The position numbers and the translations under genes are program-made. A stretch of 32,000 bases of DNA from an uncultured archaeon. GTDB lineage: Archaea > Asgardarchaeota > Thorarchaeia > Thorarchaeales > CAZPUN01. Position 1 is the first letter of the stretch. The number at the start of each line of letters is the position of its first letter. The stretch lies in assembly GCA_964589775.1 (NCBI GenBank), contig CAZPUN010000017.1, positions 1-32,000 on the forward strand, in the 5' to 3' direction. The notes under the pieces are model-generated. The model was not told where the DNA came from, did not search any database, and worked only from the letters and a program-made list of their open reading frames with translations. Shown piece after piece: positions 4,496-16,028 of this stretch.

Positions 4496-5047
4496 ATGAG
4501 CAGTGAGAGGCATTCAAAACGAGAAGATTATGCATATGTGCTAGCAGTAGTACCGGATATTAGAAGTAGAGAAGATGTTCTTCAGGTAATTGGAGATCGG
4601 TATTTCTCACTGCTAGAGGTCATTCCAATGAAGGGGAAAAGATTTGAAATTGGAGAACGTATATTTTTAGGCAGAGGGGAACGAAAAAAAATTGAACGCG
4701 TAAAGCGTCGCATAAGATATAGCGATCTTTCACAAGAAGCAGAAGAAAACATACAAGAAGTATTAGAACAAATAATAGAGAGGAATGAACCATATTTTGT
4801 AAATTTCTTCAATAATGCTAGACCAATCACTACACGCCTCCACTCACTTCAATTATTACCAGGAATCGGAAAAACACTAATATGGAAAATAATTGAAGAA
4901 CGTAAAAAAGAGCCATTCAAAAGCTTTGAAGATATATCAAACAGAACAAAAATACAAGACCCTAAAAGAATGATCGCAAAACGCATAATTGAAGAATTAA
5001 AGGGAGACTGCAAAAGATATCTATTCGTAAAGGGACAAACAAACTAA
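4496..5047 (+). CDS. DUF655 family predicted RNA-binding protein
   Basis: EDYAYVL, FSLLE, FVNFFNNARPITTRLHSLQLLPGIGK (HhH), FKSFEDI; usual position before ksgA. Confidence 0.95.
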   Translation: MSSERHSKREDYAYVLAVVPDIRSREDVLQVIGDRYFSLLEVIPMKGKRFEIGERIFLGRGERKKIERVKRRIRYSDLSQEAEENIQEVLEQIIERNEPYFVNFFNNARPITTRLHSLQLLPGIGKTLIWKIIEERKKEPFKSFEDISNRTKIQDPKRMIAKRIIEELKGDCKRYLFVKGQTN

Positions 5048-5061
5048 GCAGGAGATAAAAC

Positions 5062-5904
5062 TTGTTTTTATCAAAATCATCAACAATACAGTATACAAAA
5101 GAAATACTACAAAAATATAATATCCGCCCCAGTAAAAAAATGGGGCAAAATTTTTTGATTGATCCCGAGATTGCCAAACAACAAGTTATGTTTGCAGATT
5201 TAACAAGTGATGATGTTGTTTTAGAGATCGGTGGGGGGATTGGGATTCTATCATATTATATTGCAGAATATGCAAAAAAAGCAATAGTTATTGAAAAGGA
5301 TAAACGCCTTTGTGAGCATTTAAAACAAATGTTCAGTACATCATTGAATGTAGAAATAATTTGTGATGATGCATTAAAGATTGATTTACCAAAAGTAGAT
5401 AAAGTAATTTCTAATTTACCATATTCAATCTCATCAGACATTTTATTTAAAATAATAAATGAAACTCAATTTAAGATTGCAATTTTGATGTTGCAAGAGG
5501 AGTTCATAGAACGTATTTTAGCAAAGCCAGGAGACTCTAATTACGGAAGGTTATCAATCGGGGTAAAAAGATATTGTGATGTTAGAATTTTAAGAAAAGT
5601 ATCTAAATATGCATATTTTCCAGTTCCAAAGGTGGACTCAACAATTATCGAATTGATCCGCAAAAACAAAAAAGTAGATTATACTTTTGAACAAATTTTT
5701 TATTATACTGTAAAAGGTATTTTTAATTTCCCACGAAAGACCGTAAGAGCAGCAATAGTACAGTGGTTGAAAAGAAAACCGGACATGCTATCAAAAGTAT
5801 TACAATGCATAGAAGTTAAAGATCTCATGGAAAAAAGAGTAAGACACATTACCATAGAAGATATTGAGCAAATATCCAAATGTATTCAGAGGATTCAAAA
5901 TTGA
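5062..5904 (+). CDS. rsmA: 16S rRNA adenine dimethyltransferase RsmA/KsgA/Dim1
   Basis: KKMGQNFLID, VLEIGGGIG, SNLPYSIS, YGRLS, FPVPKVDS; TTG start after GGAGA. Confidence 0.96.
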   Translation: MFLSKSSTIQYTKEILQKYNIRPSKKMGQNFLIDPEIAKQQVMFADLTSDDVVLEIGGGIGILSYYIAEYAKKAIVIEKDKRLCEHLKQMFSTSLNVEIICDDALKIDLPKVDKVISNLPYSISSDILFKIINETQFKIAILMLQEEFIERILAKPGDSNYGRLSIGVKRYCDVRILRKVSKYAYFPVPKVDSTIIELIRKNKKVDYTFEQIFYYTVKGIFNFPRKTVRAAIVQWLKRKPDMLSKVLQCIEVKDLMEKRVRHITIEDIEQISKCIQRIQN

Positions 5905-7325: not shown

Positions 7326-7781
7326 CTAACTTACTTTTCTTAATAAAACAAGAGACAAGGAGTGCTTCTCCTTACATTTTTCTTTAAATTTGTTATCCAT
7401 TATTTTAATAATCTTAACTTTATCGCCTTTTTCTAAGCCAATTGGCTCACATAGATCATGATAAGGACATGCATAATTCTCGCAAACTATAGGCTCATAA
7501 GAAATTATTGCATTTACAAACACATTCCGTGAAGGAATCACAACTTCGATCTCGGCAGGTCGAACACGTACAACACTTACACGCCCATGAATCGGACATT
7601 CATGGATAACATCACGTACTTCAATTATTTCGTAAATCGTTCTAGGATTTAAATTATCTATACAAACGGGTTTTAAATTACAATTATTACATTCTGAAGC
7701 AGCTTGTGTAAATAAGAATTTGAAACCAATCTTCGCTTGCTTTTCACCGATTAGAGTAAATACTGACAGATCATCAACCAT
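7326..7781 (-). CDS. UPF0179 family protein
   Basis: TLIGEKQAKIGFKF, CxxCxLxxVC, HECPIH, CxxxxCPYHDLC. Confidence 0.9.
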   Translation of the reverse strand: MVDDLSVFTLIGEKQAKIGFKFLFTQAASECNNCNLKPVCIDNLNPRTIYEIIEVRDVIHECPIHGRVSVVRVRPAEIEVVIPSRNVFVNAIISYEPIVCENYACPYHDLCEPIGLEKGDKVKIIKIMDNKFKEKCKEKHSLSLVLLRKVS

Positions 7782-7908: not shown

Positions 7909-8059
7909 GTGTGGAGATTAAATAGGAAAGTCAGATATTAATGGGTGACCCACAATAAAAGGTGAAATCAAAAATGTACTCTCCACCCAATGACCCGCCC
8001 GACTTCCCATGGTAAAAACCATGGATCAATTTAGGGATGGCACCACCCGCCATCCACAC
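7909..8059. ncRNA. Candidate structured RNA element (GC-rich island with several helices)
   Basis: Perfect stems GGATGGC/GCCATCC (8035-41/8049-55), CCATGGT/ACCATGG (8007-13/8018-24) and GTGTGGA/TCCACAC (7909-15/8053-59). Long helix 7998-8008 with 7925-35 and 7983-89 with 7942-48 that pairs fully only on the minus strand, using G-U. Flanks are very AT-rich. Confidence 0.4.
7974..8015 (+). CDS. Putative 13-aa proline-rich micro-ORF MYSPPNDPPDFPW
   Basis: GGTGA Shine-Dalgarno (7961-65) 8 nt before the ATG; followed by hairpins and a T-tract. Confidence 0.3.
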   Translation: MYSPPNDPPDFPW

Positions 8060-8184: not shown

Positions 8185-8601
8185 ATGATATTAGGATACA
8201 TTATTATTTCATCAGAAGGTTTATTGATACATTACAAATTCTTTTCAGAGATTAATAAGAATGAATCAGAATTATCTTTATTTGCGGGAGGAATTACAGC
8301 AATACAGTCATTCGTAAATGAAATTTTAAAGAAAGATATTGATCATATTAAAGCAGGAGACTGGACAGTTACTTTCGTACATAGCAAAAAATTCAAAGTA
8401 TTAATTATTGCGACTTCTACAAATAATATGGCAAAAGGAATTGCAAAAAAGATAAAGGACATCATAGAACCAATTATTGGAGAATATAACGGGATAATCG
8501 ACAACATACTCACTGAAAAAATTAATGATATTTTATCACAAAAAATAGATAGTGACATTGATAATATAAACAAATCATTTTCAAATATACATTATATATA
8601 A
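8185..8601 (+). CDS. Longin/roadblock-like (profilin-like fold) small protein of the type common in Asgard archaea
   Basis: Pattern IIISSEGLLIHYKFF ... LFAGGITAIQSFVNEI ... IDHIKAGDWTVTF ... KVLIIAT, then a helix; fits the beta-beta-alpha-beta-beta-beta-alpha longin topology. Confidence 0.65.
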   Translation: MILGYIIISSEGLLIHYKFFSEINKNESELSLFAGGITAIQSFVNEILKKDIDHIKAGDWTVTFVHSKKFKVLIIATSTNNMAKGIAKKIKDIIEPIIGEYNGIIDNILTEKINDILSQKIDSDIDNINKSFSNIHYI

Positions 8602-8613
8602 GAGGTCTTTAGA

Positions 8614-9348
8614 ATGGTATTTACCGAAAAAATAACAAATGATGTATATATGATTGGAGATTATGTACAGAATATGAATCTTTCAATCAATGTATATTTA
8701 ATTAATGAAAAATACCCAACGTTAATTGATGCTGGGTCTCTTTCAGTCATCCCACAAATAAAAGAAGAAATTGAAAAAATTATACCCCTTAAGGATATAA
8801 AATACATATTTCTCACCCATGAACACCCAGATCATATAGGAGGGCTACCTGAATTAATTTCGGATGCATACGATGCAAAAATCATTGCAAGCAAGCATAT
8901 TGAAGTTCATTTAGGATTTATGGGAATTGCAGGTAGGATAATTTCAGTCTCAGGCGGAGAAACATTTGATATTGGAAATGATACAATAAAAATATATTAC
9001 ACACCAATTGAAACACTTGGCACTATTTCATTTTATTTAGAAAACCGAAAAATATTATTTAGTGGGGATTACTTTGGACAAATTGAAAAAGAATTCACAC
9101 CACGGGTAAATGTTCCAACTAATGAATTAATTAATCAAATAATTGCGTTCCATGATGGGTTAGGATATAAAACATCAGACATAAAGAAATATTTAGGACC
9201 ATTTTTAAAAACACAAGTAAAAATAATTGCCCCGGGACATGGTTCAGTAATAACAAATGATATTGAACAGATAATGAAAACGACTATTAATGCTAAATTA
9301 AAAGGTAGTGAAAAGGGAGGACTTTGGAAAAAACTATTTGGAAGATAA
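8614..9348 (+). CDS. Stand-alone metallo-beta-lactamase-fold protein, FprA/ODP-like, with an amphipathic C-terminal tail
   Basis: DVYMIG...NVYLI...LIDAG, THEHPDH, LFSGD, IAPGHG; no flavodoxin domain; ends KGGLWKKLFGR. Confidence 0.8.
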   Translation: MVFTEKITNDVYMIGDYVQNMNLSINVYLINEKYPTLIDAGSLSVIPQIKEEIEKIIPLKDIKYIFLTHEHPDHIGGLPELISDAYDAKIIASKHIEVHLGFMGIAGRIISVSGGETFDIGNDTIKIYYTPIETLGTISFYLENRKILFSGDYFGQIEKEFTPRVNVPTNELINQIIAFHDGLGYKTSDIKKYLGPFLKTQVKIIAPGHGSVITNDIEQIMKTTINAKLKGSEKGGLWKKLFGR

Positions 9349-9472
9349 AGTTTTTCATTCCATTACAATTTTTTATTTATTTGTTCGAAACCGCTACACT
9401 TATAAACGTCTAAAGATTCAATTGTAAAATGAACTAATTCTTACTTTAATAATCAATTTGGAGAGTAACTAT

Positions 9473-10108
9473 ATGGCTTATCCTAGGTCTATGGAACTAA
9501 AAACAGGAACCACCACTGTTGGAATCACAACAAAAGATAGTGTGGTATTAGCCTCAGATTCAAGAGCTACAATGGGCTATTTTATAGCAAATAAAACAGC
9601 GAAGAAGATCTTTAAAATTGATGATCATATTGGTGCAACCATTGCAGGTTCTGTTGCAGATGCACAGACAATTATGGATATTCTAAAAGCAGAAACTAAA
9701 TTATATAAATTGAAAAACGGAAAAGCAATGAAAATAAAATCCGTTGCAAGATTATTATCAAATATCTTATTTAACGCAAGGGTCTATCCATATATGCTAC
9801 AAACAATTGTTGGCGGAATTGATGATACAGGTCCGCATGTATATTCATTAGACCCACTTGGTAGCGTAATGCCAGAAACATATGTTTCAACTGGCTCTGG
9901 TTCTCCAGTTGCGTATGGTGTCTTAGAATCAGAATATAGAGAAGATCTTACAATAGACGAAGCCGTTGAAATTGCTGTAAAAGCAGTACATTCGGCTTTA
10001 GAAAGAGATGCCGCAACTGGAAATACAATTCATGCAGTTATTATTACGAAAGAAGAGGGCTATCAGGAAGTGCCCCAAGAAAAAATTGAGAAAATTAGAC
10101 AAAAGTAA
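9473..10108 (+). CDS. psmB: Proteasome subunit beta
   Basis: Short propeptide then KTG/TTTVG with catalytic Thr1, DSRAT, AGSVADAQ, TGSGS, ERDAATG. Confidence 0.98.
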   Translation: MAYPRSMELKTGTTTVGITTKDSVVLASDSRATMGYFIANKTAKKIFKIDDHIGATIAGSVADAQTIMDILKAETKLYKLKNGKAMKIKSVARLLSNILFNARVYPYMLQTIVGGIDDTGPHVYSLDPLGSVMPETYVSTGSGSPVAYGVLESEYREDLTIDEAVEIAVKAVHSALERDAATGNTIHAVIITKEEGYQEVPQEKIEKIRQK

Positions 10109-12190: not shown

Positions 12191-12610
12191 TTAAGATGAT
12201 GCAATTTTTACATATCTGGGAGTGACTACAATATAGTCTTTCCCAATTAAAGCCATTTCAGATTGAATGCCGCGAGTTTCACCACGGAGGCGCTCTACAA
12301 CACGCCTTAGTTCAAGGCGAGATTGTTCGCGACCATCATTAAATTTAGAGATATCAAGTAAAATTATATTTCCACGATCAAGTTCTTCTACAATAAAGGG
12401 AACATCCGCCAGTCCAGTTAATTTGTGAGGTTTTATGTAGATCGAGTTTGAAGACATATTCATTTCGGAGGGCTTAACAGAGCGTGAAATAGGTTTCTCC
12501 TCGGGTTCATATAGTCCAAGCTGCTCAATGATTTCTTCAGCATCAATTTCAGATAATGGTTCATTATATGGAGAGCGCTTATTTTTTGATCTACCTCTTA
12601 AGAACGGCAT
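12191..12610 (-). CDS. sepF: Cell division protein SepF (archaeal type)
   Basis: Short basic/hydrophobic N-terminus, linker, core ELDRGNIILLDIS...LRRVVERLR...IGKDYIVVTP; downstream of a PUA-domain gene as in many archaea. Confidence 0.88.
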   Translation of the reverse strand: MPFLRGRSKNKRSPYNEPLSEIDAEEIIEQLGLYEPEEKPISRSVKPSEMNMSSNSIYIKPHKLTGLADVPFIVEELDRGNIILLDISKFNDGREQSRLELRRVVERLRGETRGIQSEMALIGKDYIVVTPRYVKIASS

Positions 12611-14744: not shown

Positions 14745-14839
14745 TGGTGCCGTCGGCCGGATTTGAACCAGCGGCAACGGGATCTTCAGTCCCGCGTTTT
14801 CGGGAATAGCAAATTACTCCCGGGCTGAACTACGACGGC
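14745..14839 (-). tRNA. tRNA-Phe(GAA) with an 18-nt intron in the D-stem (position 22/23; 14799-14816)
   Basis: Acceptor GCCGTCG/CGACGGC; anticodon arm CGGGA-CTGAAGA-TCCCG; CCA. BHB-type CGGG-AGT-AAT...ATT-CCCG-AAA; splicing restores GTTC-AGCCCGGGA-GAAC. Confidence 0.93.
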
Positions 14840-15924: not shown

Positions 15925-16028
15925 GCGGCTGTAGTCTAGTCAGTGGATTAGTTTTTAACCACCTAGATTGGCTAGGACGGAGGCCTTCCAAGCCTCTAAG
16001 CCGGGTTCAAATCCCGGCAGCCGCACCA
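15925..16028 (+). tRNA. tRNA-Gly(TCC) with a 27-nt intron in the D-loop (position 17/17a; 15942-15968)
   Basis: GCGGCTG/CAGCCGC acceptor; GAGGC-CTTCCAA-GCCTC anticodon arm; CCA. CTAG-TCA-GTGG...CCAC-CTAG-ATT motif; splicing gives D-loop AGTCTGGCTA, identical to the neighbouring tRNA-Gly(GCC). Confidence 0.94.

Follow-up and report, generated by a model that had tools for sequence, protein, structure and literature searches.

The closest described counterpart of the gene pair analysed here is ODP, a stand-alone O2 and iron sensor that consists of the core of a flavodiiron protein (FDP) without the flavodoxin domain and is encoded beside a chemoreceptor of the methyl-accepting chemotaxis protein (MCP) type that has no sensor of its own (PMC7666581). 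The pair lies in the genome of an uncultured archaeon of the Asgard order Thorarchaeales (assembly GCA_964589775.1), at positions 8185 to 9348 of the first 32,000 nt of contig CAZPUN010000017.1; this whole stretch will be named hereafter the window. Its first open reading frame (ORF1) encodes a protein modelled as a longin domain and its second (ORF2) a protein of the metallo-beta-lactamase (MBL) fold. Like the ODPs of Treponema denticola and Thermotoga maritima (PF19583; structures 6qrq, 6qwo, 6qnm and 6r9n), ORF2 is made up of an FDP-type MBL core of about 250 aa and adjoins the gene of a separate, non-enzymatic partner, which is the sensor-less MCP in the case of ODP and the longin in the case of ORF2. 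It differs from ODP in being Asgard archaeal, in its 20-25% identity, in carrying a C-terminal tail resembling that of MinD, and in having H-E-H-P-D-H in motif 2 with a Glu in motif 3, where 6qrq has H-Q-D-P-D-V with a motif-3 His. Chemotaxis genes (MCP, CheA, CheW) were not found near the pair, whose neighbours in the window are UPF0179, psmB and FttA, and the longin is the sole conserved neighbour of ORF2 in 10 related loci.

The best match of ORF2 over the whole core is to the FDPs themselves (FprA, ROO and flavorubredoxin; 1e5d, 1ycf, 4d02 and 1vme), with which it shares the predicted ligand composition; in contrast to them, it has no flavodoxin domain binding flavin mononucleotide (FMN), carries HxHxDH in place of HxExDH, and draws a Glu from motif 3. 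ORF1 resembles in topology the core longins of TRAPP (TRAPPC4/Trs23, TRAPPC1/Bet5) and the first longin domains of the tri-longin guanine nucleotide exchange factors (GEFs) acting on Rab proteins (Mon1, Ccz1, Fuzzy, HPS1). Unlike these, it is a single-domain archaeal protein at 9-19% identity with a conserved Tyr-aliphatic C-terminus, and its partner is a predicted metalloprotein, not another longin or a GTPase; the likeness to GEFs is one of predicted structure. The third relative is the membrane-targeting sequence (MTS) of MinD, which the ORF2 tail resembles in its extreme C-terminal place, its basic character, an identity of 7 residues in 13 and the flexible linker before it, with the differences that the tail is attached to an MBL-fold protein instead of a ParA/MinD ATPase and is dispensable in some orthologues. 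Longin domains of Asgard archaea are frequently fused to signalling domains and are widely used in signalling or as adaptors (bioRxiv 10.1101/2020.10.19.343400), and the partners of Asgard longin and roadblock proteins can almost never be predicted from gene order, as is explicit for GTPases in PMC10933270. Each of the two proteins thus belongs to a known fold class; the literature searched contained no conserved operon of a longin and an FDP/ODP core, no relocated site-1 carboxylate and no MBL protein with a MinD-like tail, nor was a longin-MBL or longin-FDP module found described in that limited library.

Conservation and layout of the gene pair

The two genes and their spacer are arranged as follows.

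8185 to 8601, plus strand: ORF1, a 138-aa protein modelled as a stand-alone longin domain (ORF list, AlphaFold2 [AF2] model, structure comparison)
8602 to 8613, plus strand: spacer of 12 nt, with GAGGT at 8602-8606, 7 nt ahead of the ORF2 ATG (sequence reading)
8614 to 9348, plus strand: ORF2, a 244-aa flavodoxin-less MBL-fold protein modelled as FDP/ODP class (Pfam, PDB sequence search, AF2, VIA-align)

An earlier note on this DNA had described two co-oriented genes 12 nt apart, and the ORF list and our reading of the sequence agree on that arrangement. The layout of the spacer suggests that ORF1 and ORF2 are read as one transcript.

The pairing itself, on which that note had staked its proposal, is borne out by a neighbourhood survey of relatives. 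Orthologues of ORF2 were identified in 13 of 399 other genomes sampled in the phylum (E <=1e-56), spread over six families, so that the module, whose functions we infer below, is rare; the order to which the window belongs has a single other family, and its 86 sampled genomes contained none. Twelve of the 13 genomes carry an ORF1 orthologue as the immediate neighbour of ORF2; in the thirteenth (G046), ORF2 is frameshifted and ORF1 is missing from the vicinity. A reciprocal profile search of the same 400 genomes showed that every full-length ORF1 orthologue adjoins ORF2, and ORF1 was present within 6 kb in 10/10 orthologous loci whereas it was present in 0/70 loci of distant MBL homologues. Named records carrying the pair belong to Jordarchaeia/Freyarchaeia, Hermodarchaeota, Atabeyarchaeia and unclassified Promethearchaeati, and a metagenome scan yielded one further orthologous locus (L130), likewise paired. 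The gene order is ORF1-ORF2 in the window, in Jordarchaeia/Freyarchaeia, in Atabeyarchaeia and in one other lineage, and ORF2-ORF1 in Hermodarchaeota, in locus L058 and in the metagenomic contig L130. Moreover, stop and start codons overlap by 1-4 nt in four loci (L054, L056, L058 and L130). The flanks vary by lineage, and no third conserved gene was seen in the related loci compared, a synteny comparison that covers the relatives beyond the closest one (P0002/P0005, with 76% and 82% identity). The pairwise identities of ORF1 and ORF2 co-vary (r = 0.96), a value that is descriptive only, the relatives not being independent.

The best explanation of this distribution is that ORF1 and ORF2 constitute an autonomous two-gene operon that a scattered set of Asgard lineages would have inherited as one unit, and there is strong comparative evidence, from gene content and order, that the pair acts as a functional unit. 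That the adjacency reflects chance or mere synteny, with no functional link, is barely credible: the co-occurrence is strict, extends over at least five named or distinct Asgard lineages with differing flanks, and comes in both gene orders with overlapping stop and start codons, so that the comparative data effectively refute it.

Two of these loci show peculiarities of their own. In the thirteenth genome, the ORF2 orthologue (L032, 1331-2067) is split by a frameshift near residue 60, which would reflect either decay of the module or an assembly error. In Atabeyarchaeum deiterrae (CP147780; L056), the gene immediately upstream of the pair is a second, more distant longin-like one of 137 aa (5004-5414), a feature confined to this lineage.

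Folds, predicted metal site and C-terminal tail

Sequence searches place ORF1 only loosely. The sole Pfam match is a sub-threshold one to Sybindin (13.5 bits against a cut-off of 25, E 0.08), and the gathering threshold was reached for none of the longin families Sybindin (PF04099), Fuz_longin_1 (PF19036) and Longin (PF13774); ORF1 is therefore assigned to the longin fold and not to a Pfam family. Among 18 members of the ORF1 family, three do match Fuz_longin_1 (best E 3.1e-5), and a paralogue (L041) scores 25.0 bits against its cut-off of 26.1. An exhaustive phmmer search of 1.84 billion representatives returned 15 homologous proteins, mostly of 136-148 aa, that have in common M-I-x-G-Y at the N-terminus and a Tyr plus an aliphatic residue at the C-terminus. 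In the alignment of the 18 sequences, M1, I2, G12, F43, K89, I125 and N129 are invariant and Y137 is near-invariant. Searched against the PDB, the family profile matched the longin domains of MON1 and a dynein roadblock protein (E 0.04-0.17).

The structural comparison is more specific. The AF2 model obtained with the 18-sequence alignment has a mean predicted local distance difference test (pLDDT) of 91.1 and a predicted template modelling score of 0.85, with strands at residues 2-9, 14-19, 54-57, 60-66 and 70-77, helices at 27-48, 83-99, 107-120 and 122-135, and a flexible low-confidence tail ending in the conserved Tyr-aliphatic terminus (HYI). The predicted order of elements, beta-beta-alpha-beta-beta-beta-alpha-alpha(-alpha) without an N-terminal helix, is the longin topology; an N-terminal helix is a trait of roadblock domains and not of longins. 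With this model, the top 12 Foldseek matches were all longins, the best being COPI zeta, TRAPP Bet5/Trs23, Mon1-Ccz1 and AP sigma subunits. VIA-align gave Z 15.7 for TRAPPC4 (2j3t_D; 128 residues aligned, root-mean-square deviation [rmsd] 2.5), Z 12-13 for the first longin domains of Mon1 and Fuzzy and for other TRAPP longins, and Z 11.4 for Sec22b and VAMP7, the longin matches spanning 116-131 residues, as against Z of about 10 over only 94-99 residues for roadblock proteins. Because the modelled topology and the Foldseek and VIA-align matches agree, ORF1 is, as judged from its model, a stand-alone longin domain, as the earlier note had proposed.

For ORF2, Pfam returned MBL families only, with ODP (PF19583) at 87.9 bits against a cut-off of 27.2 over profile positions 2-194 of 194 and Lactamase_B at 88 bits, and gave no match to the flavodoxin family PF00258, in keeping with the earlier reading of a flavodoxin-less protein. 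The best PDB sequence matches were ODP 6qrq (2.7e-12) and then flavodiiron proteins, and NCBIfam gave weak matches to glyoxalase II and B3 lactamases, with the scores of all hydrolase families far under their cut-offs. All ORF2 orthologues are 232-250 aa long, and neither longer forms nor ORF1-ORF2 fusions were found in a word-based search, which is weak evidence. The AF2 model (pLDDT 93.2) consists of an MBL core up to about residue 228. By VIA-align, it matches FDP cores (1e5d, 1ycf, 2q9u, 4d02, 1vme) at Z 28-31 (rmsd 2.0-2.5, 226-233 residues) and ODPs at Z 26-29 (about 230 residues), with a clear drop to the next classes, namely PqsE (22.5), LACTB2 (21.8) and true beta-lactamases (about 21). 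The alignments to FDP cores start at model residues 1-4, which upholds the FprA/ODP-type N-terminus read from the sequence beforehand; likewise, the modelled structure places ORF2 in the FDP/ODP class and not among the ordinary Zn hydrolases (Z 28-31 and 26-29 versus at most 22.5). By its model, then, ORF2 is a stand-alone MBL core of the FDP/ODP structural class; it is not an FDP because it has no flavodoxin/FMN domain, has HxHxDH for HxExDH and takes its Glu from motif 3.

The predicted metal site and the tail are located at the following positions.

8818 to 8835, plus strand: motif 2, H69-E70-H71-P72-D73-H74, with H69 and H71 as predicted ligands of site 1 and D73 and H74 of site 2 (codons read; 25/25 orthologues)
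9010 to 9012, plus strand: Glu133, occupying the motif-3 His position (paired by alignment with this His in ODP 6qrq, T. maritima FDP 1vme and E. coli flavorubredoxin 6etb)
9067 to 9069, plus strand: Asp152 (SGD, residues 150-152), predicted bridging ligand, motif 4 (invariant)
9151 to 9153, plus strand: His180 (FH-x-GLGY) in the helical lid, a clade-specific invariant (25/25 orthologues against 1/30 distant homologues; 6qrq has an aligned His)
9238 to 9240, plus strand: His209 (PGHG, residues 207-210), predicted site-2 ligand, motif 5 (invariant)
9310 to 9345, plus strand: tail EKGGLWKKLFGR, a basic amphipathic segment like the MinD MTS after a low-confidence linker (AF2, MinD comparison, motif counts)

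An alignment of 55 sequences comprised 25 ORF2 orthologues and 30 distant homologues, the latter made up of 8 FDPs (HxExDH) and 22 hydrolase-like proteins (HxHxDH). Asp152 and His209 do not vary in any of them, and Glu70 and His180 are invariant in the ORF2 clade only. Motif 2 of ORF2 is HxHxDH as in hydrolytic MBLs, not HxExDH as in FDPs. The motif-3 column contains Glu in all 25 orthologues versus His in all 30 distant homologues. This His is a ligand of the first metal in MBL, FDP and ODP proteins, and site 1 of the MBL fold is formed by positions 1 and 3 of motif 2 together with the motif-3 residue. Therefore, site 1 of ORF2 is predicted to consist of His69, His71 and Glu133, with Asp73, His74 and His209 in site 2 and Asp152 as the bridge. 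Read from the aligned sequences, the site-1 ligands would be H,H,E in ORF2, as opposed to H,E,H for FDPs and H,D,H for the ODP chain 6qrq. Counted over the whole site, the predicted ligands (4 His, 1 Glu, 2 Asp) are those of the di-iron site of FDPs, except that motif 3 instead of motif 2 supplies the site-1 carboxylate. The earlier note had listed THEHPDH (68-74), SGD and PGHG as ligand motifs, all of which are present; it overlooked both the HxHxDH pattern and Glu133 in motif 3, by which the site differs from the one the note implied. The relocated carboxylate gives mild support, though not proof, to a carboxylate-rich site of the iron type; between iron and zinc, the odds for iron appear even.

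In the AF2 model, the tail consists of a linker (226-235) and a short helix (236-242), with block-mean pLDDT of 66 (231-240) and 55 (241-244). The ORF2 end SEKGGLWKKLFGR and that of E. coli MinD, EEKKGFLKRLFGG, are identical at 7 of 13 positions with the same spacing of hydrophobic residues (i, i+1, i+4, i+5), so that the MinD-like tail noticed beforehand, ending in GGLWKKLFGR, holds at the level of sequence; the net charge over the last 14 residues is +3. A loose motif for these 14 residues was matched by 21/25 ORF2 orthologues versus 16 of the 2093 ORFs of >=100 aa in the same genome (0.8%), and the strict motif G-x-[LIF]-W-x-[KR]-[IVL]-F by 12 of the 25 orthologues and, in this genome, by ORF2 only. 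No true MinD was found in the genome, the best match scoring 78 bits against a cut-off of 213.

Functional readings of the pair

What the comparisons establish is the fold of each protein, the conservation of the ligand pattern and of the tail motif, and the fact that the two genes strictly co-occur side by side. Starting from these, the reading we prefer, with a probability of roughly 0.45, is that of a membrane-attached di-metal sensor with a bound longin partner that relays the state of the sensor. ORF2 would be a binuclear-metal sensor of a small molecule or of redox state (O2, NO, peroxide or Fe(II)) rather than a turnover reductase. In most lineages, the tail, that is, a flexible linker followed by a basic amphipathic helix like that of MinD, would hold ORF2 at the cytoplasmic face of the membrane, and ORF1 would be an obligate partner that relays the state of ORF2 to other proteins. 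A sensor is the more natural role compared with an O2 or NO reductase because ORF2, having no flavodoxin domain, has no built-in electron supply; set against enzymes of any kind, a sensor falls, in our analysis, just short of even odds. ORF1 and ORF2 probably form a physical complex, and membrane binding by the tail, where there is one, seems rather more plausible than its absence. Another point in favour of a relayed redox signal is that the same genome fuses an ORF1-type longin to an iron-sulfur FrhB redox protein.

Several observations weigh against this proposal. Motif 2 is HxHxDH of the hydrolase type, with surroundings (THxHPDHIGGLPEL) like those of ordinary MBL hydrolases, and zinc-binding His/His/Glu sites exist, e.g. 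in alkylsulfatases, for which reason iron is not established. No GTPase gene is conserved beside the pair in the related loci compared. Calculated over 11 residues, the Eisenberg hydrophobic moment of the ORF2 tail is 0.34 against a background mean of 0.45; E. coli MinD also scores 0.45, so that this measure leaves even the known MTS undetected. Furthermore, the tail is missing in four orthologues (P0017, P0018/L031, P0021 and L057, the last being a complete Freyarchaeia chromosome) and diverged in Atabeyarchaeia, and membrane attachment is therefore not essential to the pair. The tail-less loci compared still keep an adjacent ORF1, which is intact in L057 and truncated by the end of the contig in L031/L059. 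The tail therefore looks like an add-on whose function could be separated from the partnership, as expected of a membrane anchor.

The features shared with hydrolases could also mean that ORF2 is a metallo-hydrolase (a thioesterase, lactonase or phosphodiesterase with Zn2 or Fe/Zn) at the membrane surface, with ORF1 as a regulatory or scaffold subunit, much as with the MBL-fold enzyme PqsE, part of whose action passes through a partner protein. HxHxDH and its flanks, the weak NCBIfam matches to glyoxalase II and B3 lactamases, and the place of PqsE as the next-best structural class after FDP/ODP (Z 22.5) all fit such an enzyme, the leading rival to the sensor, which we nevertheless consider unlikely, for the fold as a whole, N-terminal strands and helical lid included, is clearly nearer to FDP/ODP (Z 28-31 versus 22.5), the motif-3 His of all 30 distant homologues, 22 of them hydrolase-type, is a Glu in ORF2, and the family scores all remain far under the cut-offs. 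Alternatively, ORF2 might be a di-iron reductase that detoxifies O2, NO or H2O2 with electrons from an external donor, which ORF1 would dock, or ORF1 might stabilize the dimer as a substitute for the absent flavodoxin domain. Its top structural matches are indeed catalytic FDPs, the predicted ligand composition equals that of their di-iron site, and ORF1, always encoded with ORF2, is about the size of a flavodoxin domain. Yet ORF1 is modelled as a longin and not as a flavodoxin fold, the window copy contains no Cys and hence no obvious cofactor site, no redox partner gene is conserved nearby, and ordinary full-length FDP-like genes (about 396 aa; G000:C7) are present in the genome as well, all of which make a reductase a quite improbable choice.

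A different kind of proposal starts from the near-invariant penultimate Tyr of ORF1 and from psmB directly downstream in the window, namely that ORF1 is a proteasome-associated factor that docks by its C-terminal Tyr-X in the manner of an HbYX motif, the MBL gene being incidental. The Tyr is preceded by H, S, R, K or D, none of them hydrophobic, and one or two extra residues follow Tyr-X in four aligned family members and in the L130 orthologue; the HbYX proteasome-activator motif was rejected on these grounds. Given, moreover, that adjacency to psmB occurs in no related locus and was seen in this genome only, whereas adjacency to ORF2 is universal, a proteasomal role for ORF1 is extremely unlikely.

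To what the preferred sensor-longin pair would signal is a further matter. About 13 paralogous copies of the ORF1-type domain are present in the same genome, fused to tetratricopeptide repeat (TPR) arrays, large helical domains, 2x[4Fe-4S]-FrhB/FdhB, a winged helix, a C1/PHD-like finger or a multi-pass membrane domain, and the domain, to judge from these fusions, looks like a general adaptor module. No GTPase fusion was seen among the nearest paralogues of this genome; Arf/Ras-domain fusions among structural neighbours of the ORF1 model in the ESM Atlas would be the sole hint toward a GTPase. An output of the pair to a small GTPase, as put forward in the earlier note, has so far found no support and is doubtful at best, and a little more doubtful still is the full combination in which a membrane-recruited di-iron sensor of O2, NO or Fe(II) is read out by a longin acting on a small GTPase or another trafficking-type switch. 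If true, it would give Asgard 'eukaryotic signature' signalling a direct redox or oxygen input, via a di-iron site with a relocated carboxylate. If ORF2 binds iron together with O2 or NO, the ODP type of stand-alone sensor would extend from bacterial chemotaxis to archaea, and the FDP fold would gain, with H,H,E, a third natural way of arranging its first-site ligands. Here a longin has an unambiguous conserved genomic partner in the form of a small, soluble and well-modelled predicted metalloprotein, which places the pair among the few Asgard longin systems open to direct reconstitution and testing.

Other ORF1-type longins and the flanking sequence

Some of the ORF1 paralogues have notable architectures. 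One is a 519-aa protein (G000:C55:24103-24450; L038, 304-1860) in which two [4Fe-4S] motifs and the N- and C-terminal domains of FrhB/FdhB (F420-type) are combined with an ORF1-type longin at the C-terminus (E 2e-9 with the ORF1 profile); it is the second case in this genome of a longin associated with a redox protein. The closest paralogues (E about 1e-12) are two related TPR proteins of about 630 aa that end in an ORF1-type longin (G000:C32:3999-4391 and C34:3373-3681; L035 and L036), the C32 copy containing an in-frame TAA. A third architecture (G000:C10:3349-3702, L037; and P0065) places the ORF1-type longin at the N-terminus, ahead of about 480 aa of helical sequence without Pfam match, a layout reminiscent of longin-plus-solenoid subunits of GEFs or GTPase-activating proteins.

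The pair is flanked in the window by the following features.

7326 to 7781, minus strand: UPF0179 gene, upstream flank (PF03684, 3.3e-39)
9351 to 9383, plus strand: T-rich stretch (T5, then a run containing T6) directly after the ORF2 stop (sequence reading only)
9458 to 10108: proteasome beta subunit gene (psmB), downstream flank (PF00227, 1.2e-64)

The T-rich stretch may be an archaeal oligo-T terminator closing the two-gene unit. Together with psmB, the gene of the FttA/aCPSF1 nuclease also lies downstream of the pair. UPF0179 was not found, with the query used, in 25 same-order genomes. The GC content of the pair (26-31%) is low, yet like that of the adjoining genes, and thus gives no clear sign of transfer; PADLOC returned only generic motif-2 matches for the pair and nothing pointing to a defence system.

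Between UPF0179 and ORF1, the AT-rich spacer holds a GC-rich element of about 150 nt (window 7909-8059) with two perfect 7-bp hairpins and a closing helix; this element matched no Rfam family (best E 2.7), and its folding z-scores are only -1.9 on the plus strand and -1.6 on the minus strand. Further downstream, ARAGORN and Rfam disagree on tRNA calls at window positions 14745-14839 and 15925-16025: ARAGORN reports an odd 95-nt 'tRNA-Asn (att)', and Rfam a 101-nt tRNA that is not called by ARAGORN, a picture that fits intron-bearing tRNAs. Finally, a 139-aa ORF on the minus strand (window 12191-12610) resembles by eye a cell-division protein of the SepF (DUF552) type and is a candidate for one, of otherwise ordinary appearance.

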